Below, piece by piece: positions 8,298 through 64,000 of a stretch of DNA of 64,000 nt. The DNA is from an uncultured delta proteobacterium. Lineage in GTDB: Bacteria > Desulfobacterota > Binatia > Binatales > Binataceae. A program made the position numbers and the translations under genes. Location of the stretch: the NCBI GenBank assembly GCA_963724765.1, contig CAVRVY010000003.1, forward strand, positions 768,001 to 832,000, read 5' to 3'. Position 1 is the stretch's first letter; every line of letters begins with the position of its first letter. The notes below the pieces were generated by a model, which was given only the letters and a program-made list of their open reading frames with translations, ran no database searches and was not told where the DNA came from.

Positions 8298-8984
8298 ATG
8301 GGACTCGAGCTCAAGATTGCGCCGTCGATCCTGTCGGCTGACTTCGCGCGCCTGGGCGAGGAGATTCGTCGGGTCGAGGAGGCTGGCGCCGACCTGATTC
8401 ATTTCGACGTGATGGACGGCCATTTCGTTCCGAACCTGTCGATCGGCGTGCCGGTGCTGAAATCGCTGCGCAAGATAACCCGGCTGCCGCTCGACGCGCA
8501 TCTGATGATCTCGGAGCCTGCGCGCTATCTGAAAGCCTTCGTCGAGGCCGGCGCCAATTCGATCTCAGTGCATGCGGAGGTCTGCGACGATTTGCCGGGA
8601 ATCGCCGCGCGGATCCACGAGCTCGGCGCGCGCGCCTCGGTTGCGATCAATCCGGAGACGCCGGTTGAGCGCGTGCTCGCCCCAGCCGAGCATCTCGACA
8701 TGATCCTGGTGATGAGCGTGCATCCGGGGTTCGGCGGACAGGGCTTTATCGCCGAGAGCCTGGAGAAGTTGCGCGCGGTGCGGCGCGAGATCGAGCGGCG
8801 CGGGCTCAAGGTCGACGTCGAGGTCGACGGCGGGATCAAAATCGACAATATCGGCGCGGTGGCCGAGGCTGGAGCCAACGTATTTGTGTCCGGGTCTGGA
8901 ATTTTCGGTCATGAAAACTACCTGAGGATAATCGCGGAGATGCGCGAACAGGTGGCGAGCGCCCGAATGAACTGCCGGGAGTAA
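8298..8984 (+). CDS. rpe: Ribulose-phosphate 3-epimerase
   Basis: IAPSILSADF, HFDVMDGHFVPN, MSVHPGFGGQ, VDGG. Confidence 0.97.
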   Translation: MGLELKIAPSILSADFARLGEEIRRVEEAGADLIHFDVMDGHFVPNLSIGVPVLKSLRKITRLPLDAHLMISEPARYLKAFVEAGANSISVHAEVCDDLPGIAARIHELGARASVAINPETPVERVLAPAEHLDMILVMSVHPGFGGQGFIAESLEKLRAVRREIERRGLKVDVEVDGGIKIDNIGAVAEAGANVFVSGSGIFGHENYLRIIAEMREQVASARMNCRE

Positions 8985-9137: not shown

Positions 9138-9215
9138 CGGGGTGTAGCTCAGCCTGGCTAGAGCGCTGCGTTCGGGACGCAGAAGTCGCTGGTTCAAATC
9201 CAGTCACCCCGACCA
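9138..9215 (+). tRNA. tRNA-Pro(CGG)
   Basis: CGGGGTG acceptor stem, anticodon arm CTGCG-TTCGGGA-CGCAG, GGTTCAAATCC T-loop, encoded CCA. Confidence 0.97.
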
Positions 9216-50595: not shown

Positions 50596-50736
50596 AAAAC
50601 GCTCCGCGGGCCCTTTTGGAATTCTCCAAGCGTCCGAATGCCCAAGACCGATCATCGTCGCCTCAGCTGCAGGGGGCGCTCTTTTACCGCTTCGAAATCT
50701 CGCTGTCGAGCACCAGCACGCCCGCCGAGCGCAAGC

Positions 50737-51150
50737 TCATCGCGTCGGCCTGACTGCGCCATTTTCTCGTGGATCGATTTTGAGGTGCCTATTCATCTCG
50801 GCTTCACCGAGGTCCCATTGACCGTCCCACGCGATCTGTAAACGGAGCAGTTCGCTATCGGCTTCGACCGATATTGCTCGAACCGTAAATCCAGAGCATC
50901 GTGGCTCCGGTGTGTTGGAGAGGAAAATTATTGGGGATGATCATCGGCGTGAGATAAAGAGAGCCTTCTTCGTTCACGTAAAATAAATCCGCATGGTCGT
51001 CTGGCCCTATCGTTCGCGAAGGCTTCAGGTCAACCTCTTGATTCCGCCATTTCAATGGCCGCGTAACCGAATATACCGCTTGCGGTAGCCGGTCAGGCCC
51101 CGGCGATTCTACCAGCGTCATCTCGACTCGAACTTCGTGCCCACCGGACT
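50737..51150 (-). pseudogene. Frameshifted, 5'-truncated hypothetical gene remnant
   Basis: Removing one T at ~50888 joins ...PNNFPLQHTGATMLW to ITVRAISVEADSELLRLQIAWDGQWDLGEAEMNRHLKI. Confidence 0.5.
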
Positions 51151-51302
51151 GTCTGCGTTTGCAAGTCACCCCTGCGCGCTCGGAAGCGCGAGCCTCGCGC
51201 ACACCGCGCGCCATGAGCGCACCCAATGCCCAGATCGATGCAGTCTGTCGACCACGCTCCCGAGTTTGTTTCCCCCCTCAAGCATCCTTTAGCGTGTCGA
51301 AA

Positions 51303-51968
51303 TTATGGTGCGAACGGCGCCAAGACGGTGCATCGCGGCGCCTGCCCCACCGTCGGCTGCACGGTGCTGAAGAACCTCACGTTAGTGCTACAGGCGCGCC
51401 GATCGCAGCCACCTACTACGTATTCATACGGCTCTAAGCCGGTCCCGGGCGTTAAGCTACCGTTTGGGGAATCCGCGCCATCGGAATAAGCCAACCCATA
51501 GCCCTGCGCATCGACGATCAGATCGCGCGGATTGATCTGAGACAGAGCGGTCGCGTCCAACCCAACCGAAAACGCCTCTACGGCAAAGCCCTGGCACGCG
51601 ACGGGCGCAAGCAGGCTTTCGGCGGCGGCGGGGCTACCGATGCCCTGGCGCGGAATCGCCTCAGTATCCTGCATCACAGCGTAGATGGAAATTTGCGCGC
51701 CGATAGGTGCTTTGATCGGGAGCACGACGCAGGGCTCGAATCCGACGCCGCTGATATACCGGTTCGCGCCCCTAGGTGCGCCGATCGCGACGATGAACGA
51801 CAGGTCACCGTTTTGCCCCTCGCAATCACCAGCCTGGCTGACCGAGATCATGATCGCAGCGTTGGTGCGTGAGGTTTGGGCTGCGAGCGTCGCGGGCGCT
51901 ATCGCGAGGCTGCTCGCGATGAATCCGTAAAGGCACCACCGAATTCCCGAGAACCAGAATCGTTTCAT
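51303..51968 (-). CDS. Secreted hypothetical protein
   Basis: GGAGG RBS, signal peptide ending LAAQ, several Cys. Confidence 0.6.
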   Translation of the reverse strand: MKRFWFSGIRWCLYGFIASSLAIAPATLAAQTSRTNAAIMISVSQAGDCEGQNGDLSFIVAIGAPRGANRYISGVGFEPCVVLPIKAPIGAQISIYAVMQDTEAIPRQGIGSPAAAESLLAPVACQGFAVEAFSVGLDATALSQINPRDLIVDAQGYGLAYSDGADSPNGSLTPGTGLEPYEYVVGGCDRRACSTNVRFFSTVQPTVGQAPRCTVLAPFAP

Positions 51969-52395
51969 CGAACCCTCCTTCTTGTTAGGTCTCCTTTCAT
52001 TTTTTAGCTAGCGCGAAGGTAACGGATCGGCAGGACGATGCACGCCGTTGCAGAAGATCGCGCACCATACCTCTCATCCCGCAGTGTGATGACTTAAAGC
52101 GCGCGGCGCCCAACTCAATTATGTTTGTCTATTTCAAATGAGTTAGGTCAAACGCTAACTTCGAACGCTGGGCTTTAGAGCGCAGCGCGCAGCAGAGCGC
52201 GCCGCGCGCCATAAGCGAGCCCAACGCCCTCAGATCGAGCGTGACTCGTGCGCTGGCGAGGCGCGCCCACAGTGCTTATTCAAGCACCGTTTAACCAATT
52301 CAGCGTGCTAGTTATGCGCTAATTTTCGCAGAATTCGCTGCGCGCGCTCATCGCTGCACGCGAGCGAAATGCTTTATCTTTCAAGCGCTTAGGTG

Positions 52396-52440
52396 GGTGG
52401 GCCGTTGGAGACTCGAACTCCAGACCCGCTGATTAAGAGT
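52396..52440 (-). other. att site: displaced 3' half of tRNA-Lys(CTT)
   Basis: Minus strand ACTCTTAATCAGCGGGTCTGGAGTTCGAGTCTCCAACGGCCCACC gives anticodon loop, T-arm and acceptor 3' strand; no matching 5' half upstream. Confidence 0.88.
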
Positions 52441-52713
52441 AGCAACCCCCAGCATTCCAGCCTGCCCGACCAGCACGTCACTCGACCGAAAGCGCGGCAG
52501 TCCGGATGAGCCGTCTGCACGATGGGTGACGTCATTATGCGGGTTTTCAGGATGCTATGGCACCGGTTGGGCGCCAATTTGCACCCGCCGCTATCGATAC
52601 CGAGGCTCGAGTTCACCCTGAGCGTTCCGATCATTTGGCGAACTTCACCGCCATGTTCTTAACATCGCACCTACTCGACGCGGGCGTCCTGACTTTGCTA
52701 CAAAGCGGACACC

Positions 52714-54051
52714 ATGACGGCGGGGTGGTTGCGAATGCACGGATCAAAGCAGGCCGTCTTCGCCAATCTAGAAACGCAAATATCGAGGATTCGACCGAGG
52801 CTTTCCGAAAAGCGTCGGCCTTTTATCATCGAATTCGCGGGTACGCCTAAGTCCGGAAAGACGACGACCATCAGCGCAGTACACCAATTTCTCAAGAGAA
52901 ACGGCGTGATTGTTCGCACCTCGCAGGAGCGCGCTTCGGTCGCACCATTGATAGATAAGGGCACAGCTTTCTTCAACACGTGGGTTACATGCGCTACTCT
53001 CAACGGAATAATTGAGGCGCTGGAGGACGAAAAGCTGGATGTTCTCATTCTGGACAGAGGGCTTTTTGACGGCTTAGTCTGGATCGACTGGCAAGAAAAA
53101 ACGCACCGAGTGTCTGAAGCGGAAGCGAAGGAATTTCGGAGCTTTGTACTGACACCTAGGTGGCGCGGCCTCGTCGATTTAGTGTTCCTCATGCACTGCG
53201 ATGCCAAAACCTCTCTCAAGAGAGAACATGAAAAACAGATTACCCGCCGGCATGGAGCCATAATGAATGTCGCCACTCTTGCTCAGATACGCCGGCACTA
53301 TTTGAAGGCAGCCAGACGTTATGCAGGATATTTCAAATCCTTCAAGGTCATCAAAAACAGCCCAGGCCCCGAGATGAAAACGATCACATATATCGCCAAG
53401 CTTGTGCTGAATTCGCTGGGTCGATTCGCGGACGAAGAGGTGCTTTGCCTGCCGAGGAAGTCCGTGGAAGGTCAGATCAAGCTTTCCGAGAAGAAAGTGG
53501 TGACGCCTAGTTGGAAAGCAGTTACGCGACTTGTCAATCGACGTGTAACATACGTGGCGAGATCGACCGCTGAGGTATCGGACCAGCTTCTGCAGGTCGT
53601 TCCAGTCTGCATCATACGAAACGGCAGCCGATTTCTCACCAACGTGCGGCACGAACCAGGCGAATCGTTACATGAAGCATTTGGTAATTGGGCTGGTGGC
53701 CATGTGAGGAAGCAAGATTTGGATGACGCGGGATCGAAATGGGAAAGCGTGTTGGCGGGGCTACGAAGGGAACTACATGAAGAGCTCTCGTTGGAGGATT
53801 TGCCTCGGCTGGTGCCAATTGGAATCGTTCACAGTTCGGAAGACGAACGTGCCGCCCGCCACATAGGGATTGTTTTCGAAGTGACCTTTTCTGATCCTGC
53901 CAACATTGCCGCGTTCGACAACAAGACAATCCGTGAGCGACCGAACCGCTACGTGAAAACCAGTTGGATGGAAAGGAAAGAGCTTTCTCGCAACCTTGAT
54001 TCTCAAAGAGATTGGTCAAGGGCGATAAGCTCCTTCTTGGTTGAAGCGTAG
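52714..54051 (+). CDS. Thymidylate-kinase-like P-loop domain fused to a NUDIX hydrolase
   Basis: IEFAGTPKSGKTT Walker A, LILDRG kinase motif; C-terminal GGHV...GLRRELHEELSL Nudix box and HIGIVF. Confidence 0.82.
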   Translation: MTAGWLRMHGSKQAVFANLETQISRIRPRLSEKRRPFIIEFAGTPKSGKTTTISAVHQFLKRNGVIVRTSQERASVAPLIDKGTAFFNTWVTCATLNGIIEALEDEKLDVLILDRGLFDGLVWIDWQEKTHRVSEAEAKEFRSFVLTPRWRGLVDLVFLMHCDAKTSLKREHEKQITRRHGAIMNVATLAQIRRHYLKAARRYAGYFKSFKVIKNSPGPEMKTITYIAKLVLNSLGRFADEEVLCLPRKSVEGQIKLSEKKVVTPSWKAVTRLVNRRVTYVARSTAEVSDQLLQVVPVCIIRNGSRFLTNVRHEPGESLHEAFGNWAGGHVRKQDLDDAGSKWESVLAGLRRELHEELSLEDLPRLVPIGIVHSSEDERAARHIGIVFEVTFSDPANIAAFDNKTIRERPNRYVKTSWMERKELSRNLDSQRDWSRAISSFLVEA

Positions 54052-54292
54052 TGTCGGTAGATGAACTTGTGGCGATCTACCCGCTGATTGCATATCAGCC
54101 GCCCCCGAAATTCTCAAACAACGGCGCGCGCTTTTTGTGGCCGGTGCCAAGCTGGTGCCAAAGAATCGGAGCCCTGGGTTATTCCTATGCGCATAGGATT
54201 CCAGGGCGACCTCCGACAGTCCCGGCTTCTAGACGCTTGGCCGGCGCGTTCTGATCACCTGCTCGATGCCGCGCTCGGAGAAGCCGCCGCTC

Positions 54293-54700
54293 TTAATCGC
54301 GGCCGTATCTCCGGTTGCGCCAAATTGGCGCCGCACTATCCCGTGAGGCCGCTGAGCTCTTAGTATGCAGATACTCGTCGATGCCGCGCTCGGAAAACCG
54401 CAGGCAGCGCGATTTCAGTCTGTGTGTGAACGGATAGAAGTCCGCGTTGCGATAGAGCGTGTCGCGTGCGATCCCCAGCAGTGCCGCCGCCTCGTCCGCA
54501 TGCAGCATCCGGTCCGGTCCGCTTGGCATGCTGGCCAGCGCCCCGGGCTCCCCGGACAGCATGATGCGTCGCGCCTTCAGCGCGCCTCGAGCCATCTCCA
54601 ACATTGCGATCAGTTGCCGTGTCGCATCGGCGGAAAGAGCGTTCACGCGCAGCGGATCCCGCGCGATGTCATCCAGGGTGATATTCTCGTTCTGGTTCAT
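54293..54700 (-). CDS. AlpA/excisionase-like HTH protein
   Basis: DRMLHADEAAALLGIARDTLYR...PF..RL...LRFSERGIDEYL; GAGGTG RBS. Confidence 0.78.
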   Translation of the reverse strand: MNQNENITLDDIARDPLRVNALSADATRQLIAMLEMARGALKARRIMLSGEPGALASMPSGPDRMLHADEAAALLGIARDTLYRNADFYPFTHRLKSRCLRFSERGIDEYLHTKSSAASRDSAAPIWRNRRYGRD

Positions 54701-54755
54701 TCTCGCTTCACCTCACTATTCGAGTCTCCTGCCGTGTTGCCTGCCGTGCAGCGCT

Positions 54756-55901
54756 TTACAGCCGCATCGGCATGATGACCGCTTGGGGCGAGTCCGCCGC
54801 TCCTGCCGTGGTGATCACGCAAGGGCTCGTCGGGTCCGCCAGCCGAAACACAAGCTCGTCGCCCAGCGTCGCGATCGCGCCCAGCAGATAGCTCGCGTTG
54901 AAGCCTGCCGCCATCTCGGCATCGCGCACGTCGCCTTTGGCCGCGATGCCTTCGCTCGCCTCGCCGCGCTCCGGGTCGGACGCGGAAACGGTCAGCCGAC
55001 CGGATGCGAAGGCCAGCCGGACGCCGTGATAGCGGGCGTTGCTGAACGGCATGACCGCACCTATCGCAAGCCGCAGAGTATCGCGCCACACGGTCAGCGC
55101 AGCGTCTTGCGCGGACGCCTTGGGAATCACGCCTCGATAGTCGGGAAACTCGCCTTCGACCGTGCGCCCCTTGTAGAGCGCGCCCGCCACGTTGAACGCG
55201 ATGACCGGACGCTCCGCGAGCCCGTCGTTGCTTCGCTCCGCGCCCGTGTCGGGCATCCGGAGCGCCATGCGAACGTCGCCAGCCGGGCGCGCGCCCAGGG
55301 CCGTGCGCAGCGCGGCCAGCAGCTTCCGCGGAATGATGAACGGCGCAAACCGCTCCGTCGCCAATGGGCGCTCGGTCAGCGCGAGCCTATGCCCGTCGGT
55401 TGCGACCATGCGGACGCGCTGATTGCCCGCGCGCTCAAACAACACGCCGCTCAGGTTGTAGCGCGCCTCATCTGGCGAGACGGCATAAAGCGTGGCGTCG
55501 ATCATTTCCGCGAGCATCGCGGCCGGAAGTATCACCCGCAGCCGTGGGGCGCCCGTGGGAAAGTCGGCCGGAAAACTCGCCGGGTCGAGTCCGACCAGCC
55601 GCGCGCTCGTACCGTTGACCGCAACGCGCACGTCCGCCGAAGCGCTCGCGCCGTCCGGGCCGTCGGATACTTTCGGTGGGTCGGACGCTTCGAGCGTCAC
55701 GGTTTGCGCCGCTCCGCGCCCGCTCGCGGATGATGGCTGGCTGCGCTTGAGTACCGCGAGCAAGGTCCGCGCATCGACCGTGGCGACGCCAGCCGCGTGC
55801 GTCTGACATGGGATGCGGGTTGCGTAGGCCATCTCAAGGTCCGTCGCGCGGAGCATCAGGCATCCGTTGGCTTCGAGCGCAACGTGGGCCAGGATCGGCA
55901 C
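54756..55901 (-). CDS. dnaN: DNA polymerase III beta sliding clamp (element-borne copy, N-terminus possibly damaged)
   Basis: PILAHV, ATDLE, ARYNLSGV, MVATDGHRLA, GEFPDYRGVIP, FNASYLL, VIMPMRL. Confidence 0.9.
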   Translation of the reverse strand: MPILAHVALEANGCLMLRATDLEMAYATRIPCQTHAAGVATVDARTLLAVLKRSQPSSASGRGAAQTVTLEASDPPKVSDGPDGASASADVRVAVNGTSARLVGLDPASFPADFPTGAPRLRVILPAAMLAEMIDATLYAVSPDEARYNLSGVLFERAGNQRVRMVATDGHRLALTERPLATERFAPFIIPRKLLAALRTALGARPAGDVRMALRMPDTGAERSNDGLAERPVIAFNVAGALYKGRTVEGEFPDYRGVIPKASAQDAALTVWRDTLRLAIGAVMPFSNARYHGVRLAFASGRLTVSASDPERGEASEGIAAKGDVRDAEMAAGFNASYLLGAIATLGDELVFRLADPTSPCVITTAGAADSPQAVIMPMRL

Positions 55902-56236
55902 GGTTGCGCGCCGCTCGCAGGTCGAGGAATGGATCGCCGCGCGCCCTCTAGTAGCACCAGACTATACGCCCGACGCGGCTCACGGCAGTTAGCGGACAGC
56001 GCCGGTTCGAGCGCTCGCTCCGCTCGCCGGCGCCAATGGAATTGTGGAGGGGAGGGGGGATGCTGGGGATGGGAAATTCTACTAGGACGCGCTGCCAAGT
56101 CCTACCTATTCAGGGCCGCCCGCGCGGCCGCCGACACATCTATCGCTTGTGCTCGCCGCGGTTGAAACTGACTCTGCCTGAGCGCGTTTGGTCGCCTATC
56201 TGATGCCGAGCTGCGCGCGCGCTGGGAGCCAGGCCG

Positions 56237-58299
56237 ATGACGCAGCTCGCGAGGCCAATCGCGCTCAAGGTCGTTCCGAGCGCGATCCCCGATGAGCTCA
56301 AGGATGACCAATGGGTCAACTGGCGCTCTGAGCTACGCCCCAACGGCAAGGGCGAGCAACGCCATACGAAGCCGCCACTGAAACCAAGCGGCGAGTACGC
56401 CAAAAGCACGGACGCGACGACCTGGTCGCCGTTCTCGGAAGTCATGGCGGCCTATGCGCGCGGCGACTTCGACGGTATCGGCCGAGTATTTTGTAGTGAC
56501 GATCCCTATGTGGTGGTCGATCTAGACCATTGCAGAAATCCGGCTAACGGCACCGTGGATCGGTGCGCTATCGAGCTGATCCGGCTATTGCGTTCGTACA
56601 CGGAGGTGTCGCCCAGCGGCGCCGGCGTTCGCATCGTCGTGCGTGCGAAACTGCCGGCGGACTCGCGCAATCGCACAGGCAACATCGAGATCTACGACAA
56701 CGCGCGCTATGCAACATTTACTGGCTATCGGCTGCCGGGCGCAGTGGTTACTGTGGAGCCGCGCCAAGACGAGGTCGAGGAATTCCAGCGTCGCGTATTC
56801 CCGGCTGAGCCCAAAGCGGAAGTTCACAACACAACGGACGTAATGGCGCTTCCCCGAGTCTCGATGATCAGGCGCTGCTCGAGCGCGCACGCCAGTCGCG
56901 CAGTGGAGAGAAGTTCACTCAACTCTTCGATCGAGGCGATTGCAATGGCTATTCGTCGCAAAGCGAAGCGGATCTTGCGCTGTGCGGGATGCTGGCTTTT
57001 TGGTTTGGTGGCGATACCGCCGCAATAGATAGGGTCTTCAGAAGTTCCGCATTGTTCCGCGACAAGTGGAATCGATCTGATTATAGGGAATCGACCATTA
57101 CCGCGGCCCTCAGCGGCCGAAGAGAGTTCTACGATCCGAATCGACGGCCGCCGGATGAGAATGACGCAAAAGCAGCGTCAGCCGATCCAGATAGTCAAGG
57201 ACAGCAATCCGATAGCCAGTCGCAGCAATCATCGGCGGATAGTCAATCACAGAACGGCGCTGGCCTGGGCCTCGTCTCGGCTGCTATCGTCAAGATTAAG
57301 CCCGTCCGGTGGACGTGGCCCCACTACTTTCCTGCCGGCAAGCTCTGCGACATCGAGGGCAACCCCGGCGATGGCAAAAGCATCCTGCTCGCGGATATTG
57401 CCGCGCGCGTGACTATCGGAGCACCGTGGCCCGATGGCGCGCTTGGCGGCGAACCGGGCAACGTTCTCCTGTTCTCTGCCGAAGATGATTCCTCGGACAC
57501 GATAGTTCCTCGTCTCGTGGCCGCCGGCGCGGATCTCTCTCGCGTTCACATAATTGGCGCCTCGTCGCCGGCATTCCCCGAAGACTGCGATCAGCTCGAA
57601 CAGGCTATCCGCAAACACAGCGCGAAGATGGTGATGTTCGATCCGATCGATCCCTTTCTCGATCCGCGGATCGATGGAAATAAAAACGCCGATGTGCGCC
57701 GAGCGCTGTCCCAATTGCGCGGCGTCGCTGAAGCGACCGCATGTCCGGCTTTACTGATTCGCCATCTTAGCAAAGACGGGAAAGTTACTAACGCGATTTA
57801 CCGGGGACTAGGCTCGATTGCATATACCGCGGCCGCGCGGGCGACGTTTTTAGTCGGCCGCAAGCCCGATGACCCTGACGTGCGCGTGCTCTGCGGCATC
57901 AAGTGTAACCTGTCGAGACTGCCAGCAGCGCTGAGTTTCAAGATCGTCGAGGTCACCATAGTCGGCGAGGGTGAGAAGAACGCTGAGCCGATCAAGACTC
58001 AGCGGATCGAGTGGCTCGGGCCGGTGGAAGTGAGTTCGCGCGAATTGTTGACGGAGCCCGAGCCTACGCGGCGCGGACCCAAACCTGCGAAGCGTGAAGC
58101 GGCCGAAGCTTTGATCAGGGAGTTCCTGGCGGATGGCCTCGAGCACTCCAGCGATGAACTGGAGGCAATGGCGACGGCCGCCGGGATCTCCCACGGGGTG
58201 CTTTGGCAGACGCGCAAGGAGATTGGCGTGCGGTCACGGAAACGGGGATTCGCGGCCGATTGGCTGATTTGGTTGCCGAGTGAGCAGGAGGTGCCGTGA
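56237..58299 (+). pseudogene. NrS-1-like primase-polymerase + helix bundle + AAA_25 helicase, split by a frameshift at ~56810-56850
   Basis: Frame A: DLDHC, SYTEVSPSG, EIYDNARY.TFTG; frame B (open from 56809): SQSEADLALCGMLAFW, DRVFRSS..FRDKW, GNPGDGKS, SAEDD, RHLSK. Confidence 0.8.
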
Positions 58300-58451
58300 T
58301 CGAATATGCGTTGTCGATGGTGCGGACAACCGGCCGGCATCGTGCCGATGTGCAGCGCGAAGTGTTTTCTATGGACGACGCGTTGCGGATGGTTCGATCC
58401 AAAGCGGCTATGGGAAAAGCAAACCGACAAGGAAAACGAGGAAATGGCTAA
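58296..58451 (+). CDS. Small hypothetical protein (51 aa)
   Basis: GTG overlapping the helicase stop after GGAGG; VIEYALSMVRTTG... Confidence 0.4.
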   Translation: MIEYALSMVRTTGRHRADVQREVFSMDDALRMVRSKAAMGKANRQGKRGNG

Positions 58452-58701
58452 CGGCAAAGATTATCCCAACTCGGGGATACTGTTTAAGAACGACCGCAGG
58501 CGCAACGATCGCGATCCAGAGTACGCAGGTAGCGGTGACATAACCTGTCCACGGTGCAATGCGCGGTTTCAGTTTTGGCTCAACGCATGGGTGAAGGCCG
58601 CAAGGACGGGCGCAAAGTTTTTCTCCGTCTCATTCAAGCCGAAAAACTCGCGGTCGCAGGCGGCGGCTACGGCAGTCGATAACGATGACATCCCGTGGTG
58701 A
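58444..58701 (+). CDS. Phage-type single-stranded DNA-binding protein
   Basis: NSGILFKN, PEYAG, NAWVK, FFSVSFK, acidic DDIPW tail. Confidence 0.75.
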   Translation: MANGKDYPNSGILFKNDRRRNDRDPEYAGSGDITCPRCNARFQFWLNAWVKAARTGAKFFSVSFKPKNSRSQAAATAVDNDDIPW

Positions 58702-58705
58702 ACCG

Positions 58706-59062
58706 ATGAAGAACAATGACGCACGAAGGTCCGAACCGGCCGCCACGGTGAAGCGGCCAGCCAGCACGGCACAGACCCCGGCGACGCTAAGCAGGACACA
58801 GTACGCGCGCCAGGAGATCGCGCGCGCGCGGCCCGACCTGGAGGAATTCAATTGGGACGACTTCGCAATGGGGCGGCTCGCGGACATGCTTCAGCCCGGC
58901 GACATCATCGACTTCATCGGAGTTGCCGGGGTGCGGTTTGGACCGCCGAGTCAGCCCGGGCTCTACGGCTGTAGTCGATGGCCGGCGCCGCCCGAGCGAC
59001 CGCCCGAGCCATCGGTTGACGAGCGAATCCGAGCGCACTTGCACGGGCGGAAATTCGCATGA
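58706..59062 (+). CDS. Hypothetical protein
   Basis: Operonic packing; ATGA overlap with the next gene. Confidence 0.55.
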   Translation: MKNNDARRSEPAATVKRPASTAQTPATLSRTQYARQEIARARPDLEEFNWDDFAMGRLADMLQPGDIIDFIGVAGVRFGPPSQPGLYGCSRWPAPPERPPEPSVDERIRAHLHGRKFA

Positions 59063-59427
59063 GCAAAGACTTCCGCGTCTACGTCTATCCGAATGGCCAC
59101 CACTGCTGGATGACGCAAGAGGTCAGCACGGGGTTTGCCTCGACCGGCGAATCGCGCGCCGAGGCGCTCATCCTGTTCAAGAACGTTTGGAACGATCGGG
59201 CGCCGTTCACTCTGGTCGACGGCGCACCTCCGCGACCGAAGCGAGAGGATGCGCCACAGGAGCCGGGCCCGGCTCTGGATGAAGGCGTGAAGCTGCCGGG
59301 CTATGCGGTCTACAGGCGCCTCGCCAAGCGCTTTCACAGCGACGCTCACCCCGGCGCGAGCTTTACGGCCGACCAAGTGATGGGCGCGATCAACGAATTG
59401 TGGACCGCAATGAGGGGCGCGAAGTGA
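59059..59427 (+). CDS. Protein with HicB-like N-terminus and a degenerate J-domain-like C-terminus
   Basis: STGESRAEAL; YRRLAKRFHSDAHPG...MGAINELW. Confidence 0.6.
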   Translation: MSKDFRVYVYPNGHHCWMTQEVSTGFASTGESRAEALILFKNVWNDRAPFTLVDGAPPRPKREDAPQEPGPALDEGVKLPGYAVYRRLAKRFHSDAHPGASFTADQVMGAINELWTAMRGAK

Positions 59428-60029
59428 GCAAGGCACGCAAACCGCGGACGCTGATGCAACGCGCGAAGGCCACGAAAGAGCCCGATAAAGCGATATGGAC
59501 GCTGTTCGAGGCCGCCCGCGACGAGCTGCGCAAAATGGCGCGCGAGGGCGTCGTCGATGCGGATGCGGCGGACAAGTACCATCCGGTGCGCACGCTGATC
59601 AGGATCGAGCACGATACAACCGTGCCGGCGACCATCCGGCTTTTGGCCGCGAAGGAAATCCTTTCGTACGTCGAGGCGCCCAAATCGGCCACGCTGAAGT
59701 TGGAGGCCAACGACCCGGGCGACCAGTCCATCACGATCATCGTCGCGCCCTACGCCGCGGCCGGCGGCGCACGCCGCATCGAGGCCGCGCCCGCCGCCAT
59801 CGAGGCGCCGCGTGAGGTTGACCCGCCAGTCGAGGCCGAAGTCGTGGAGCCGGTCGAAGACCCCAAGCGCATCGTCGCTTTCACGCCGCACGGAAATCCG
59901 GTGAGCGCCGAACGTCTCGCGCAGTTGAAAGACATGCAGACCGACCTGAGTAGATCACGCTGGCGCCGACGCCGGAAGTGCGCGAGCCGGGATTTCAGCC
60001 CTATGAGATGCGCAACGGCAGGCCGGTAA
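59424..60029 (+). CDS. Putative terminase small subunit-like protein
   Basis: HPVRTLIRI...IRLLAAKEILSYVEAPK pattern; GTGA overlap; 3' end may be frameshifted. Confidence 0.45.
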   Translation: MSKARKPRTLMQRAKATKEPDKAIWTLFEAARDELRKMAREGVVDADAADKYHPVRTLIRIEHDTTVPATIRLLAAKEILSYVEAPKSATLKLEANDPGDQSITIIVAPYAAAGGARRIEAAPAAIEAPREVDPPVEAEVVEPVEDPKRIVAFTPHGNPVSAERLAQLKDMQTDLSRSRWRRRRKCASRDFSPMRCATAGR

Positions 60030-60123
60030 AAACGAGCTGGCAGGAACGCGAGGAGCGGCTTGCCGAAGGCGCCGAAGCGCGACGTGCGTCGCAGGCCAAG
60101 GTCATCATCGAGGAGTAGACGCG

Positions 60124-60366
60124 ATGCAAGGACGCGATATCTGCCCGCAGTGTGACGCAACGCCTTTGGTCCGCGCCGCGCAGCGACGCGATCAGTGCCA
60201 TGAGTTGGTCGTGTTCGACAATGAGCCGTTTTTGGAAGGTGAGCCGGGCATGGTCGCGGTGCGCGTGGCGGTGCCTGTCACCCGGCGTGTCGGGTGGGTG
60301 TGGCATCCCACAATGAGGGAATGGGTTCCAATCGTGCGCACGTTGGCGGCAAAGAAAGGGAACTGA
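60124..60366 (+). CDS. Hypothetical protein with CxxC
   Basis: GAGGAG RBS; CPQC. Confidence 0.55.
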   Translation: MQGRDICPQCDATPLVRAAQRRDQCHELVVFDNEPFLEGEPGMVAVRVAVPVTRRVGWVWHPTMREWVPIVRTLAAKKGN

Positions 60367-60611
60367 GTAACGTACCGCATACTGCGGGAATAACCAGTGA
60401 CGGAGAAATGAGTAATGAGCAATACCGACGGTCAGCATAGACCTTCAACAATCGGACCGCAACATAACTCAGGCCAGCGGCAAGTACCCAAAGACCCGCG
60501 ATCGAGCGGTCACGACCTGGGCAGAAGCATTGTCCCGCCGAGCAGACGTGACGGAGACATCGACACGACTTCAGGCGCCGCGGGCGACGACGACTGTCCG
60601 TAGGTTCAACC

Positions 60612-60785
60612 GTGGATATCAAAATCGCAGGCAAGGTCTTCAATTGGGAGCGCGAGCTATCGACGCCCGCCGCGAGGCGCAAGACGCTCGCCGACCCGGC
60701 CAACGAGCAGTTGATTCGACAAATTCAAGCTGATCCGAAGCGGTTTGGGCTTGAGGCTGCCGACGTGGAAGGGATCGTGCGCTAG
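60612..60785 (+). CDS. Small hypothetical protein (57 aa)
   Basis: Hand translation VDIKIAGKVFNWERELSTPAARRKTLADPANEQLIRQIQADPKRFG... Confidence 0.4.
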   Translation: MDIKIAGKVFNWERELSTPAARRKTLADPANEQLIRQIQADPKRFGLEAADVEGIVR

Positions 60786-60851
60786 TCGACCGGGGAATAC
60801 GACGGCGCGACCGCCCAAGAGCTGCGCGAGAATTTCGCGTCAGAGGAAAAC

Positions 60852-61310
60852 ATGAACGACAAACAAATGACCGAGCTGCAAAACCTTTACGCCAGCAGCG
60901 AATACAGACGCGCCTCGAATATCATGCGCACGGACCGCGCGAAGCTGAACGACCCCGCAAATCGTGCCGAGCGCCTGGCGTGGAACCGCGCGCAGGAGCT
61001 CGAGGCGGCCATGAAGGCGGAGCAGCCTGCCCGCCAAGATCGCGACTATGCGGGCAACCCGAAATCACCGGGCGGCGTGATGAAGCCGACCGATCGCTAC
61101 GTCCCGACCACGATCAGCGAGCTGGCGAAGCTGCCGCCCGTCGAGCAGGCCAACAAAGCCCGGGAACTGCGCGCCAGCATCCGCGACAACAAGGCGCATC
61201 CGTACTGGAACGAGCACCACGAAGGCCACAAGCAGGCGGTCGAGGAAATGGCGCTGCTCTACAAGGCCGAGCAGCTAACGGACGGTACGCCGACGCTCGG
61301 CGAGGAATAA
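60852..61310 (+). CDS. Hypothetical helical protein with a phage scaffold-like C-terminal motif
   Basis: GAGG RBS; HPYWNEHHEGHKQAVEEMALLY. Confidence 0.65.
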   Translation: MNDKQMTELQNLYASSEYRRASNIMRTDRAKLNDPANRAERLAWNRAQELEAAMKAEQPARQDRDYAGNPKSPGGVMKPTDRYVPTTISELAKLPPVEQANKARELRASIRDNKAHPYWNEHHEGHKQAVEEMALLYKAEQLTDGTPTLGEE

Positions 61311-61333
61311 TCAGTCAAGGAGAGAATGAGCAA

Positions 61334-61618
61334 ATGGATACTCGCAACCGACAAGATGATCAGCCTTCCAGCCGTGGCCCGGACCGCCAGCAAGGCAGCC
61401 CAAGCGGCGCGCACCATCCGAGTGATCTTCGGCGCAGAGAGCATCAGGCGCAGCCCGACGACGTGCATCATCATGCCGCGCCGGAGAGCCGCGAAGACCT
61501 GGCCCGACGCGTTGATCGCGAGCATCAGGAACGTCTCGCCCACCATCACGGCGGACACGCCGATGAGCATGCGAAGTCCGGTGGCGACGATGGCCGACCG
61601 TTCGCCGGCAAGCGCTGA
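61334..61618 (+). CDS. His/Arg/Asp-rich low-complexity hypothetical protein
   Basis: MDTRNRQDDQPSS...HHHGGHADEH; GGAG upstream. Confidence 0.45.
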   Translation: MDTRNRQDDQPSSRGPDRQQGSPSGAHHPSDLRRREHQAQPDDVHHHAAPESREDLARRVDREHQERLAHHHGGHADEHAKSGGDDGRPFAGKR

Positions 61619-61987
61619 CACCGGAGCGCGCGACACGTCGGCGCCGCGGAAGCTGAATCGCGAGGACCTGATTACCCTGGCGCCTTCGATTCGTCGATCT
61701 TCGCGATCAGACGGTCGAGCACCGCGTGCGGATCGAAGCCCGGGCGCAACAGCATCACGCTCGGATGGCGCATGCGACGTGACCGCTGCGATTCCTTGTG
61801 CAGCTTTCGGAGTACGCGCTCTTCGCGCGGCTCAATGACAATCGCTATATCGAACATCGCCCCTCCCCCTGCTCCCGGACAGGCGACGAATATAGCTTAG
61901 CAGCTTTAGTCTGCGGGAGACTGTAGACAAGACATGTCCACAGCTTATCCGCCGATCACCACACAAACGCCCCCGTGACCCGTACGG

Positions 61988-62158
61988 TCAGCGCGGCCTC
62001 TTAGCTGGGCGCTTCGGTAGCGAGGCAAGCTGCGCGCGCACTAGCCTGCTAACGAAATAGGAAAGACTCCGATCTTCCTTTGTGGCTGCGGCCTCAAGCG
62101 CGCGCCACTCCGCGTCCGTAAGAACCAGCCTAACCGTCCGTCGAGTATCAGCCGCCAT
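61988..62158 (-). CDS. Ribbon-helix-helix (CopG/Arc-like) regulator, 56 aa
   Basis: MAADTRRTVRLVLTDAEWRALEAAATKEDRSLSYFVSRLVRAQL; below the ORF-track cutoff. Confidence 0.75.
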   Translation of the reverse strand: MAADTRRTVRLVLTDAEWRALEAAATKEDRSLSYFVSRLVRAQLASLPKRPAKRPR

Positions 62159-62170
62159 CTCCACACCCTC

Positions 62171-62216
62171 ACTATAGCCTACTTGACACTATGTGTCACT
62201 ATATGTCACTGTGTGC
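62171..62216. promoter_or_regulatory. Divergent promoter/operator with three 10-bp direct repeats
   Basis: cactatgtgt/cactatatgt/cactgtgtgc; palindrome tgacac-tat-gtgtca; plus-strand TTGACA; minus-strand GTGACA-N17-TATAGT. Confidence 0.7.
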
Positions 62217-62330
62217 CCCGCACCGCCTCCATCAAGAGGCTGACTGACACATTGTGGGATTCGTAACCGCGCTGATGCAACATCGGCGCCCGCGCATCCG
62301 GTGCGCGTTGTCCACAGGGAGGACTAAAAA

Positions 62331-62789
62331 ATGATGGACCGCGAAAACGAAACGCCCGAGACGGCAGAGGAGCCCCGAGAGCCCGGAGTGATTGAATCGG
62401 CCCTGGGCGCCGAGATTGAGGCAGGGCTTGCCCGGCTGGGTGTCACACGCGAGGAACTGAAGGCCGAAGAGAAAATCTATCCCGACGCGGACGATGACGA
62501 CGCCTACGGCCCCTTCCCGCTGTCTGTGGCCTTCCGTGCCCGTGCCATCGAGATTCTGGAGGCTCTGATAATAGACGGCATGGACACTTGCATTGAACAG
62601 AACGACATATGGATCGCCGAACTCTGACACGTGTTGCCGGGAACCGCTGGCAAGCCGTCGCCGGCCCTCGTGCAGCAACTCAAGAAAGCCAAGGAGAAAG
62701 CCGACAAAGAGTTGGAAGCCGTCTGCGCGGAGGCTTTCGAGGAGGGGAGACGTTGCCGTCTGGCCTTGGAGGACGGCGGCCATGAATAG
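62331..62789 (+). pseudogene. Hypothetical gene with an internal TGA (62625-62627); paralogue of the next gene
   Basis: Frame stays open after the TGA to TAG at 62787; aligns with 62782-63135. Confidence 0.7.
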
Positions 62790-63135
62790 CAAACCCGACA
62801 CTGCAACCGGGGTGGTGCTCGCGTTCTTCGATGCCGAGCTCGCGGCAGGTTGCACGCGGCTCAACATCCGGTCGCGCAAGGACCTGCTCATCGAGGCCGA
62901 ATGCTACCCCTCGACCGAGGACGAGCCCGGCGCCTATGAGTTCACGCCCTGGCCGTGCTTCGCGCGGGCGCGCGCGGTCGAGCTATTGGTCTATCTCGCC
63001 TTTTTCTTAAAGAATGGCGTGCGCGAAGACCTTGAAGCGGTCGATATGTGCATCGCGGAATTGCGCAAGGTCCTGAAGACCGCAGCTACCGAACTACCGG
63101 GGCTGCTCACGCTGAGGCTGAAGCGGGCTGCCTGA
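62782..63135 (+). CDS. Hypothetical protein (tandem paralogue)
   Basis: GGAGG RBS; MNSKPD...RARAVELL...IAELRKVL. Confidence 0.7.
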   Translation: MNSKPDTATGVVLAFFDAELAAGCTRLNIRSRKDLLIEAECYPSTEDEPGAYEFTPWPCFARARAVELLVYLAFFLKNGVREDLEAVDMCIAELRKVLKTAATELPGLLTLRLKRAA

Positions 63136-63204
63136 CCCGGCAGTCGAGACTCGAGACCGCGGGGCGGCCCGGTTCGTCGGAGGCTGGGCCCCCCAGGGGG
63201 AACC

Positions 63205-63549
63205 ATGACCAAAACAGAGATGCCCAGCCTCGACGAGATTGCAGCGGATCCGGCGCGCGCGGCCGGCTTGAGCCAGCCGATCCGCCTCCAGTTGATAGCT
63301 CGTTGCGCGACAATCGTGCTCGCCCTCGCCAAGACCCAAGACCGCGAACGGGCTAACGATAACGACGTCGCCAGCGACCGCCTTCTCACGGCCGAAGAAT
63401 TGGCGACGCTGATGCAGGTCAAAGTGAGCTGGGTTCACGCCGATGGGCACAAGCTGCCCTTCGCGGTGCGGCTGCTCGGTCAGCGAAAGGTCAAGCGCTA
63501 CTCGTACGCTGGTTTTGAGAAGTACATCCGCGCGAGGCAGGGGCGATGA
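63205..63549 (+). CDS. AlpA/excisionase-like HTH protein
   Basis: DRLLTAEELATLMQVKVSWVH...LPFAVRL...RYS..GFEKYI. Confidence 0.78.
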   Translation: MTKTEMPSLDEIAADPARAAGLSQPIRLQLIARCATIVLALAKTQDRERANDNDVASDRLLTAEELATLMQVKVSWVHADGHKLPFAVRLLGQRKVKRYSYAGFEKYIRARQGR

Positions 63550-63661
63550 TCGAATCGCGCGGGACCGCTCGGGGCAACCTGGGCGTCCCTTTCTCTATCC
63601 GCGATGGCGCGAGATGATGATGGACGAAAGCTTAGGTCAGTCGAGATAGGGAGGTAGTCGA

Positions 63662-63884
63662 ATGGCACTAGATGATAAGGCGCGCGATATTAGAGATTAT
63701 TATGCGAACCTTCGACCAAGTAGAATCCGACCTGGGGCGCGCCCGCGAGCGTGGCGAGATGGACGAAAAGGAATATGCCCTTTCGCTCGCGACGCTTATA
63801 AAAGAGCGCATGGAAAAGTTGTGCGATGAAGTTCCCGGATTTCGGGAAGAGCTCGACTGCCTGCTTGCGATGAAACGTAACTAG
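63662..63884 (+). CDS. Hypothetical protein, possibly frameshifted near 63708
   Basis: GGAGGT RBS fits ATG 63662 (MALDDKARDIRDYYAN), while the protein-like continuation is in the 63672 frame. Confidence 0.4.
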
Positions 63885-64000
63885 CAGCCGAATCACAGGT
63901 TTAGGGCGTGGCCGCGGAGATCCAGATCATCACCTGCGGGTATTCGGCACAATGCTCCGTCCGCGGCTGCCGCGCTCGAGCTACTATGCTCGCCAGGTAC

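Follow-up and report, generated by a model that had tools for sequence, protein, structure and literature searches.

The stretch analysed here, referred to below as the window, comprises 64,000 nt (C3:768001-832000 of genome G000, the source assembly, from an uncultured soil bacterium) and carries, from position 52396 onwards, an island inserted at a tRNA-Lys(CTT) gene. A first-pass annotation of the window had described this island as a satellite resembling the phage-inducible chromosomal islands (PICIs), with a nearly self-contained replisome. We consider it probable, at about 0.6, that the island is a grounded, defective mosaic member of a family of integrative elements restricted to the genus. 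Gene content was assigned with Pfam, PHROGs, NCBIfam and PADLOC, and tRNAs with ARAGORN and Rfam. The left flank was compared in 30 relatives, the genus comparison covered 17 genomes and the phylum sample 401 genomes. G001, G002, G004, G009 and G013 are congeneric genomes; L010, L011, L024 and L025 are the loci of G001, G002, G004 and G013, respectively, L021 is the tRNA-Val(CAC) locus of G000, and L022/L023 its tRNA-Ala(GGC) locus. Coordinates of L001 plus 50000 give window-equivalent coordinates. The island is delimited by the following features:

52396-52440, minus strand: displaced 3' part of tRNA-Lys(CTT), tRNA positions 31-75; left copy of an exact 45-nt direct repeat and left boundary of the island
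52441-52565, no strand assigned: island DNA adjoining the repeat, a putative attachment (att) arm, conserved with two repeat-adjacent segments of G002
Window-equivalent 66912-66987 (C3 834912-834987), minus strand: complete tRNA-Lys(CTT), called by ARAGORN and Rfam

The half-tRNA-Lys reported earlier at 52396 proved to be an exact copy of 45 nt of the tRNA, and the complete minus-strand gene sharing this core was found to the right of the window, as had been anticipated. Segment 52396-52440 is 100% identical over its 45 nt to C3 834913-834957 (window-equivalent 66913-66957; L001 16913-16957). On the tRNA strand, the repeat opens with the final base of the 5' anticodon-stem strand and closes one base short of the terminal A. 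The two copies are spaced 14,517 nt start to start, which gives a bounded island of 14.5 kb. The complete tRNA-Lys(CTT) lies 2.9 kb past the window end, and beyond it follow a His-Arg-Pro tRNA cluster and then rpoD. ARAGORN called no tRNA at 52396, as expected for a half-tRNA; the single tRNA that it called in the window was tRNA-Pro at 9138-9215, and the Rfam search for non-coding RNAs returned nothing besides four tRNAs. The left flank is ordinary chromosome with genes for an aldehyde dehydrogenase, a luciferase-like monooxygenase and an FAA hydrolase. A distal direct repeat of the tRNA 3' part, together with content that varies between relatives, identifies the segment as a tRNA-integrated island. 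Between the FAA hydrolase gene and the half-tRNA (50612-52395), there is about 1.2 kb of extra DNA compared with the relatives. It holds two family-less open reading frames (ORFs) on the minus strand, 50855-51226 and 51303-51968, the latter with a 37% identical paralog on contig C1, and may be an older remnant.

The FAA hydrolase gene was kept in 3 of the 30 relatives searched with the left flank, namely congeners G001, G002 and G009. All three have a half-tRNA-Lys within about 600 nt after this gene as well as a conserved right flank (the tRNA Lys-His-Arg-Pro cluster), and the intervening DNA is different in each. In G001, the tRNA-Lys island (L010 8936-18817, contig C7) is 9.8 kb long and encodes an integrase, an IstB-like ATPase, an HK97-type major capsid protein and a ClpP-like SDH protease; the 11 ORFs scanned included neither a portal nor a terminase, and the island is either a candidate capsid-forming satellite or a prophage remnant. 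G002 has more than 22 kb at this position, with two further internal half-tRNA copies, and G009 has 1.6 kb only. No clean empty site was found in these three genomes. The tRNA-Lys(CTT) locus is an integration hot spot. Window positions 52396-52565 match G002 at L011 11017-10848 (77.6%) and 8265-8096 (77.8%). The internal half-tRNA copies of G002 (L011 8221-11017, contig C2) are 2.75 kb apart, and the approximately 125 nt that follow each of them share 78% identity with window 52441-52565. Between the two copies, only small ORFs and a DPBB_1 lytic transglycosylase were present, and no integrase was found.

The first-pass annotation had expected the integrase, like the complete tRNA, to the right of the window. 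The tRNA is there and the integrase is not: none was detected anywhere between the repeats. The PF00589 scan of the genome gave 16 matches, none of them in C3 818-838 kb, and tblastn with 12 integrases (11 from G000 plus the G001 tRNA-Lys integrase) reached a best E-value (E) of 0.01 in the island. A six-frame Pfam scan of the 126 stop-to-stop frames of at least 65 aa between the two repeat copies matched a family of any kind in 9 frames and no recombinase family. In both related islands that have an integrase, the gene is situated 81 bp from the displaced half-tRNA. These are the tRNA-Lys island of G001 (integrase L010 9061-10311, adjoining half-tRNA 8936-8980) and the tRNA-Ala island of G000 (integrase C3 301335-302585, adjoining 59-nt repeat at 302666). 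By analogy, the integrase slot would be expected within the window, near 52.5-53.8 kb, and not to the right of it. This slot is occupied by another gene:

52714-54051, plus strand: fusion of a P-loop kinase (thymidylate-kinase-like) and a Nudix domain (PF02223, E 2.1e-5; NUDIX, E 0.0043; phrog_8902, E 2.8e-13)

The GC content of the kinase-Nudix gene is 0.52-0.53 vs. 0.56-0.69 elsewhere in the island. The gene has 168 homologs, some labelled Binataceae, and was present in 3 of the 17 genus genomes, where the other two copies are not beside tRNA-Lys. We read it as cargo. A role in defence was considered and set aside, PADLOC having returned 0 matches for the 18 proteins submitted. As for an integrase that might act in trans, G000 encodes no close homolog of the G001 tRNA-Lys integrase, the best being 32% identical.

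The replication genes of the island are the following:

54756-55901, minus strand: DnaN-like sliding clamp, 5'-truncated (PF02767/PF02768; TIGR00663, 148 bits vs. a cut-off of 137.65)
56237-57028, plus strand: ORF with the catalytic domain of a primase-polymerase (prim-pol) (phrog_13901, E 6.9e-43, residues 14-197)
56989-58299, plus strand (stop-to-stop frame 56809-58296): NrS-1-type HBD and AAA_25 helicase (AAA_25, E 5.6e-30)
58306-58701, plus strand: orf131, weakly SSB-like, with a Cys-rich N-terminus (phrog_18154, E 2.9e-6; phrog_7364, E 1.2e-5)

The clamp, prim-pol and helicase genes named in the first-pass annotation were confirmed with Pfam, TIGR00663, phrog_13901 and AAA_25. The SSB label of orf131 comes from its two weak PHROG matches only, and Pfam gave no match for it; a homolog of orf131 is present in L025. 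The replisome is nevertheless not self-contained; it is broken, because the prim-pol/helicase gene is frameshifted and the clamp gene lacks its 5' end.

The clamp aligned with TIGR00663 over model positions 27-367 only, and its N-terminal domain matched PF00712 only from profile position 21. The homology to the tRNA-Ala copy, 93% at the nucleotide level, stops at 55917, approximately 20 codons into the gene, and no start codon was found upstream of the clamp frame. The tRNA-Ala copy matches PF00712 from position 1, yet is itself split near residue 177. Judging from this alignment, the clamp has lost its 5' end at a recombination breakpoint, and it is probably a pseudogene. In the prim-pol/helicase gene, the prim-pol, HBD and helicase domains are all present, in two frames and not as one continuous polypeptide. 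Three-frame translation placed prim-pol out of frame after about residue 205, and HBD and helicase continue in another frame. HBD is complete in the stop-to-stop frame (81.5 bits, profile 1-64) and was matched only from position 11 when translation began at ATG, the first start codon of the helicase frame (56989) being inside HBD. Compared with the intact tRNA-Val paralog, the gene lacks 10 nt plus 3 nt near 56835-56865. This net deletion of 13 nt is no homopolymer error: the gap falls in a linker of repeated (AAY-GGC)n units. The frameshift site is spanned, with 0 differences, by an 883-nt contig of run X1.

The helicase was found in 5 of the 401 genomes of the phylum sample, G000 included. 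A related-locus search with the helicase alone gave one archaeal match, which is irrelevant. An AAA_25 helicase paralog (36-38% identity) is located at C1:983466-984494; an integrase and tRNA-Leu(CAA) lie approximately 10 kb away, at C1 994 kb, and the region may represent one more island of this general type.

The remainder of the central part of the island comprises regulatory genes and small ORFs:

54293-54700, minus strand: HTH_17a, helix-turn-helix (HTH) protein of Xis/AlpA/MerR type (PF12728, E 1.2e-4; phrog_66, E 4.6e-5)
58685-59062, plus strand: orf125, no family; 73% aa identity to the tRNA-Val island (C3:936315-936653)
59059-59427, plus strand: orf122, no family; in all four family copies
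59400-60029, plus strand: orf209, conserved helical protein, previously called TerS-like
60852-61310, plus strand: orf152, no family, previously called scaffold-like; 97% identity to the tRNA-Val island copy
61326-61838, plus strand: orf170, gene call uncertain; C-terminal third conserved in G004
62331-62627 and 62593-63135, plus strand: two small ORFs, no family; paralogous (36% identity, E 2e-11)
63205-63549, plus strand: HTH_17b, of Xis/AlpA type (PF12728, E 0.0043)

Parts of the island recur at other tRNA genes of G000. Segment 54185-55917, with HTH_17a and the clamp, is 93% identical at the nucleotide level to C3:283018-284730 beside tRNA-Ala(GGC). Segment 58774-61323, covering orf125, orf209 and orf152, matches C3:936368-938733 in the tRNA-Val(CAC) island in patches at 86-88%, and prim-pol is 54% identical to the copy in the latter island. 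These alignments indicate that the tRNA-Lys island is a mosaic. The tRNA-Ala(GGC) region (C3:282844-321622) consists of two tandem islands, marked by tRNA repeats of 59 nt and 44 nt at distances of 19.8 kb and 38.7 kb, respectively; the first of the two contains the sister HTH_17/clamp module, an 803-aa SLT-domain protein and an integrase beside the distal repeat. The tRNA-Val(CAC) island (C3:936145-949075; L021 2145-15075) has a 21-nt tRNA repeat 12.9 kb away and carries the orf125/orf122/orf209/orf152 module, a GT87 glycosyltransferase, HTH_17, an intact prim-pol+HBD+D5_N gene and a DUF5906 helicase. No PF00589 integrase was found in this island; a family-less 351-aa ORF extends across its distal repeat.

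The orf122/orf209/orf152 module was found in four copies (tRNA-Lys and tRNA-Val islands of G000, G004 and G013). Homologs of orf122 in L021, L024 and L025 are 33-37% identical to it, each just upstream of an orf209 homolog, and residues 115-170 of orf170 are 77% identical to L024 7715-7879. A tRNA-Arg called by ARAGORN in L024 looks false (91 nt, coding-like sequence). The best-preserved copy of the family is L025, an element of about 8 kb with, in order, int, HTH_17, PrimPol+DUF3987, an SSB-like gene, orf122-like, orf209-like and orf152-like genes and HNH. Pfam covers the L025 integrase over profile positions 3-122 only, and its 3' end seems to be in another frame.

The Xis/AlpA-like genes expected from the first-pass annotation were recovered as two HTH_17 genes, both below the Pfam gathering cut-off of 27 bits (22.7 and 17.7 bits). 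The two proteins are paralogous (29% identity, E 5e-10) and gave no match to a dedicated AlpA family. The PHROG family matched by HTH_17a, phrog_66, is annotated as "excisionase and transcriptional regulator", and HTH_17a is 96% identical at the amino acid level to the copy beside tRNA-Ala (C3:283119-283523). The ribbon-helix-helix (RHH) genes of the same annotation were not found: no RHH family appeared in the Pfam scans of ORFs or of the six-frame translations, which covered frames of at least 65 aa.

The absence of capsid, portal and tail genes, as well as of a structural operon past the window, was confirmed with the six-frame scan of the whole island and with a scan of the last 2.9 kb up to tRNA-Lys. 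The six-frame scan contained no capsid, portal, terminase, tail, lysis, relaxase, type IV secretion system (T4SS)/secretion or partition family, and neither it nor PHROGs yielded tail, holin, portal or connector genes. L025 likewise yielded no terminase large subunit. The packaging functions proposed for two small ORFs were not substantiated by profile, structure or phage-database searches. The protein orf209 has 29 relatives among 1.84e9 representatives and was found in 3 of 61 related genomes, each belonging to the same genus. At default thresholds, Pfam, PHROGs, NCBIfam and PADLOC returned nothing in favour of TerS, and the TerS family phrog_641 was matched weakly (E 0.0027) by 1 of 26 orf209-family members. 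With E allowed up to 10, the family profile matched 0 PDB sequences; a tblastn search of 50,697 phage records was likewise negative, and a viral-contig search with the narrower family alignment found no related locus. The AF2 model of orf209 (pLDDT 74.4) is predicted to be helical. Foldseek found no match to it at E <= 0.001, the best being 0.47 in PDB and 0.062 in BFVD; 5 of the 50 BFVD rows listed were named terminase small subunit, all at E > 0.5. The VIA wide search reached a best Z of 7.7, to generic helical repeats. Atlas placed orf209 near viral hypothetical proteins (0.93), with DUF5681 as the nearest family (0.91), which we take as a lead only. For orf152, only 6 relatives were found in 5.8e9 clusters, and the same 50,697 phage records gave no match. 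Its model (pLDDT 71.6) likewise suggests a helical protein; the best E in BFVD was 0.51, and no fold match was significant. The scaffold or TerS reading of orf152 found no support in these searches; its first Atlas match, at 0.89, is named "putative Terminase small subunit", a sub-threshold hint.

Cargo genes continue at the right end of the island:

63672-63884, plus strand: orf70, followed by the start of the right-hand cargo region (63672-64000), which runs past the window end
Window-equivalent 64326-64790 (L001 14326-14790), plus strand: orf154, 154 aa, family-less, multi-copy
Window-equivalent 64935-65810, minus strand: LCM-type S-adenosylmethionine (SAM) methyltransferase, right-hand cargo region

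The last 2.9 kb past the window thus hold a multi-copy small ORF, the LCM methyltransferase and non-coding DNA. On contig C4, orf154 has four paralogs at 60-80% identity, of which three form a tandem group at 228-230 kb.

Candidate cis elements were found in the same non-coding region. The heptamer GACTCTT/AAGAGTC occurs in 8 copies, in both orientations, within 223 nt (L001 16553-16775, window-equivalent 66553-66775). This array is located 140-360 nt from the tRNA-Lys 3' end, flanks a 34-nt AT-rich stretch (L001 16686-16719) and includes a near-perfect palindrome (L001 16755-16781); in the anticodon arm of the tRNA, the heptamer also straddles the boundary of the 45-nt repeat. In L001, it was counted 9 times vs. 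1.92 expected, a number reached in 0 of 200 shuffles, at a genome density of 0.045 per kb. The array could represent integrase or Xis arm sites, or an iteron origin. The 17-nt motif GAATTAGCGACAAAMTT (L001 15929-15945, window-equivalent 65929-65945) occurs once in G000. Among the 17 genus genomes, G013 is the only other one to contain it; there, the sibling element is flanked by two exact copies and a near one (L025 2122, 2545 and 16141). It may be a family-specific cis element.

Activity was checked in the contigs of four runs from four studies. Pieces of the island were 100% identical in all of them. The joint of 52440 to 66913 was not listed in the four contig sets, from which rare excision products would escape. 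One contig joining 6227 to 9967 was disregarded, as only 21 nt matched on one side. No RNA runs holding the island were listed.

In PMC10085698, the core of a PICI is made up of five components, namely integrase, regulator (alpA, merR or stl homolog), primase-replicase, capsid morphogenesis and terS. The same source describes elements with three components as possibly defective, or as other elements, and assigns seven core components to P4-like satellites. As described there, Gram-negative PICIs resemble our island in being chromosomal islands of 10-15 kb that combine a primase-replicase and small ORFs downstream of it with a regulator of Xis/AlpA type, a candidate one in our island, in having no tail, holin, portal or capsid genes, and in placing cargo near the att ends. 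Unlike PICIs as presented in that paper, the island has no integrase and no recognisable terS or capsid-morphogenesis genes, and its replicase is frameshifted. No more than 2 of the 5 core components can be recognised, below even the "Type C" of the paper (PMC10085698). Moreover, it carries a fragment of a DnaN clamp, and its host is probably Ca. Binataceae: RpoD showed 81% identity to two MAGs of Ca. Binataceae, a name also borne by kinase-Nudix homologs. The primase-replicase component is present by its domains, in a broken reading frame, and no capsid-morphogenesis family was matched in any of the 126 frames. The island shares with P4-like satellites the integration into a tRNA gene that leaves a direct repeat, the fused primase/helicase and a candidate AlpA-type gene; it differs in lacking an integrase and in its helicase, which is AAA_25 and not D5-type (the tRNA-Val sibling has D5_N/DUF5906). 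No small ORF gave a Pfam or PHROG match to the psu-delta-sid operon or to epsilon, proteins of a kind that is small and fast-diverging. The order of domains, prim-pol, HBD and helicase, is that of NrS-1-type prim-pol replicases (PF22763 HBD family), except that the gene is interrupted here between the prim-pol and HBD domains. Cis-mobilizable elements (CIMEs) are integrase-less remnants that can be likened to the island in their att-derived repeats, decayed content and hot-spot site. The same holds for defective or cryptic genomic islands at tRNA genes, of which phiRv1/phiRv2, small prophage-like elements named in PMC10085698, are examples. Unlike in such islands and CIMEs, the repeats are still perfect here, and past recombination with sister islands is directly legible in modules that are 86-93% identical.

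In the scenario that we favour, the island would have entered tRNA-Lys(CTT) by site-specific recombination at the anticodon arm, with the 3' part of the tRNA displaced to the far end, on the left. Because of the gene order of the sibling L025, we infer that the ancestor was a small P4/PICI-style integrative replicon with an integrase, an Xis/AlpA-type HTH gene, prim-pol/helicase, an SSB-like gene and the set of small ORFs. The clamp would have arrived as a 5'-truncated fragment together with HTH_17a, via recombination with a sister island. The 13-nt deletion would have split the prim-pol/helicase gene, the integrase would have been lost, and cargo (kinase-Nudix, LCM methyltransferase and the multi-copy small ORF) would have come to fill both ends. 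Autonomous excision, replication and transfer have most likely been lost, and the chromosome would carry the island passively. Of the initial PICI-like designation, the insertion mechanism is retained, and probably the ancestry, in view of the L025 order; the expected integrase is not, and the replisome and the packaging genes had been overstated. The name describes ancestry at best and not present function, because the integrase is absent, TerS and scaffold genes are unsubstantiated and the replication genes are damaged.

Several points weigh against a grounded, defective island. The repeat copies are still 100% identical, and the array of 8 heptamers around its AT-rich core survives, so that the cis sites could be intact and usable in trans. 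With identical pieces in all four studies, the island is stably kept and not visibly eroding. The assembly is metagenomic, and X1 may be its source sample, which leaves the frameshift not independently proven. The separated prim-pol and helicase could also work as two polypeptides. Finally, the L025 integrase itself looks frameshifted near its 3' end, and no fully intact member of the family was seen.

Among other explanations, the best placed, though unlikely, is that the island is what deletions left of a full temperate prophage: its early/replication region, without the integrase, lysis and structural modules. The clamp, the prim-pol/helicase and the SSB are replication genes of an ordinary phage kind (among them phrog_947 and phrog_13901), distant matches to the helicase were found in 188 phage records, the G001 island at the same tRNA-Lys has its HK97-type capsid and ClpP-like protease, and the decay of the island is clear. 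However, no virion gene was found in the ORFs scanned near any of the four module copies (Lys, Val, G004 and G013), the best-preserved copy extends over only about 8 kb from int to HNH, and orf209 and orf152 had no counterpart in the phage records.

Improbable, and ranked after the prophage, is a working PICI/P4-like phage satellite of a new lineage, induced by a helper phage, integrated and excised by functions acting in trans or by an unrecognised recombinase, and redirecting packaging with orf209/orf152. The small-element gene order of L025 with HNH beside small ORFs, the lack of virion genes, the exact 45-nt repeats with the heptamer array, the two Xis/AlpA-type genes and the weak TerS hints (phrog_641 for the orf209 family, Atlas for orf152) all fit such a satellite, and HNH is described as recurrent in PICIs and capsid-forming PICIs (cfPICIs) in PMC10085698. 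Against it, the island has no integrase, and PMC10085698 treats integrases as core to all satellite families; the rest of the genome encodes no close tRNA-Lys integrase either, and the replicase and clamp genes are frameshifted and truncated, respectively. We give the same low credence to a variant in which orf122/orf209/orf152 together with int, HTH_17, prim-pol/helicase and HNH constitute a genus-only satellite family with unrecognisable packaging-hijack proteins, whose tRNA-Lys and tRNA-Val copies are still mobile. In that case, the att repeats and the GACTCTT array would be the cis sites, and a helper phage or a sister island would supply recombinase and replicase in trans. Least probable is a non-viral integrative element, i.e., a plasmid-like prim-pol/helicase replicon or an integrative mobilizable element, unconnected with phage particles: integrative plasmids also have layouts of prim-pol/helicase, HTH and integrase, and no packaging gene could be shown, yet the six-frame scan found no relaxase, T4SS or partition family, the replication genes fit PHROG families well and the sibling element ends with HNH.

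As a mechanism, a decaying integrative element is ordinary and of an already known kind. Four congeneric genomes have four different islands at the same tRNA-Lys, and within G000 modules were swapped between islands at three tRNAs. These data document the turnover of mobile elements at a tRNA hot spot in a phylum without cultured members, and the small conserved module offers the best starting point for locating phage-related elements in the lineage.

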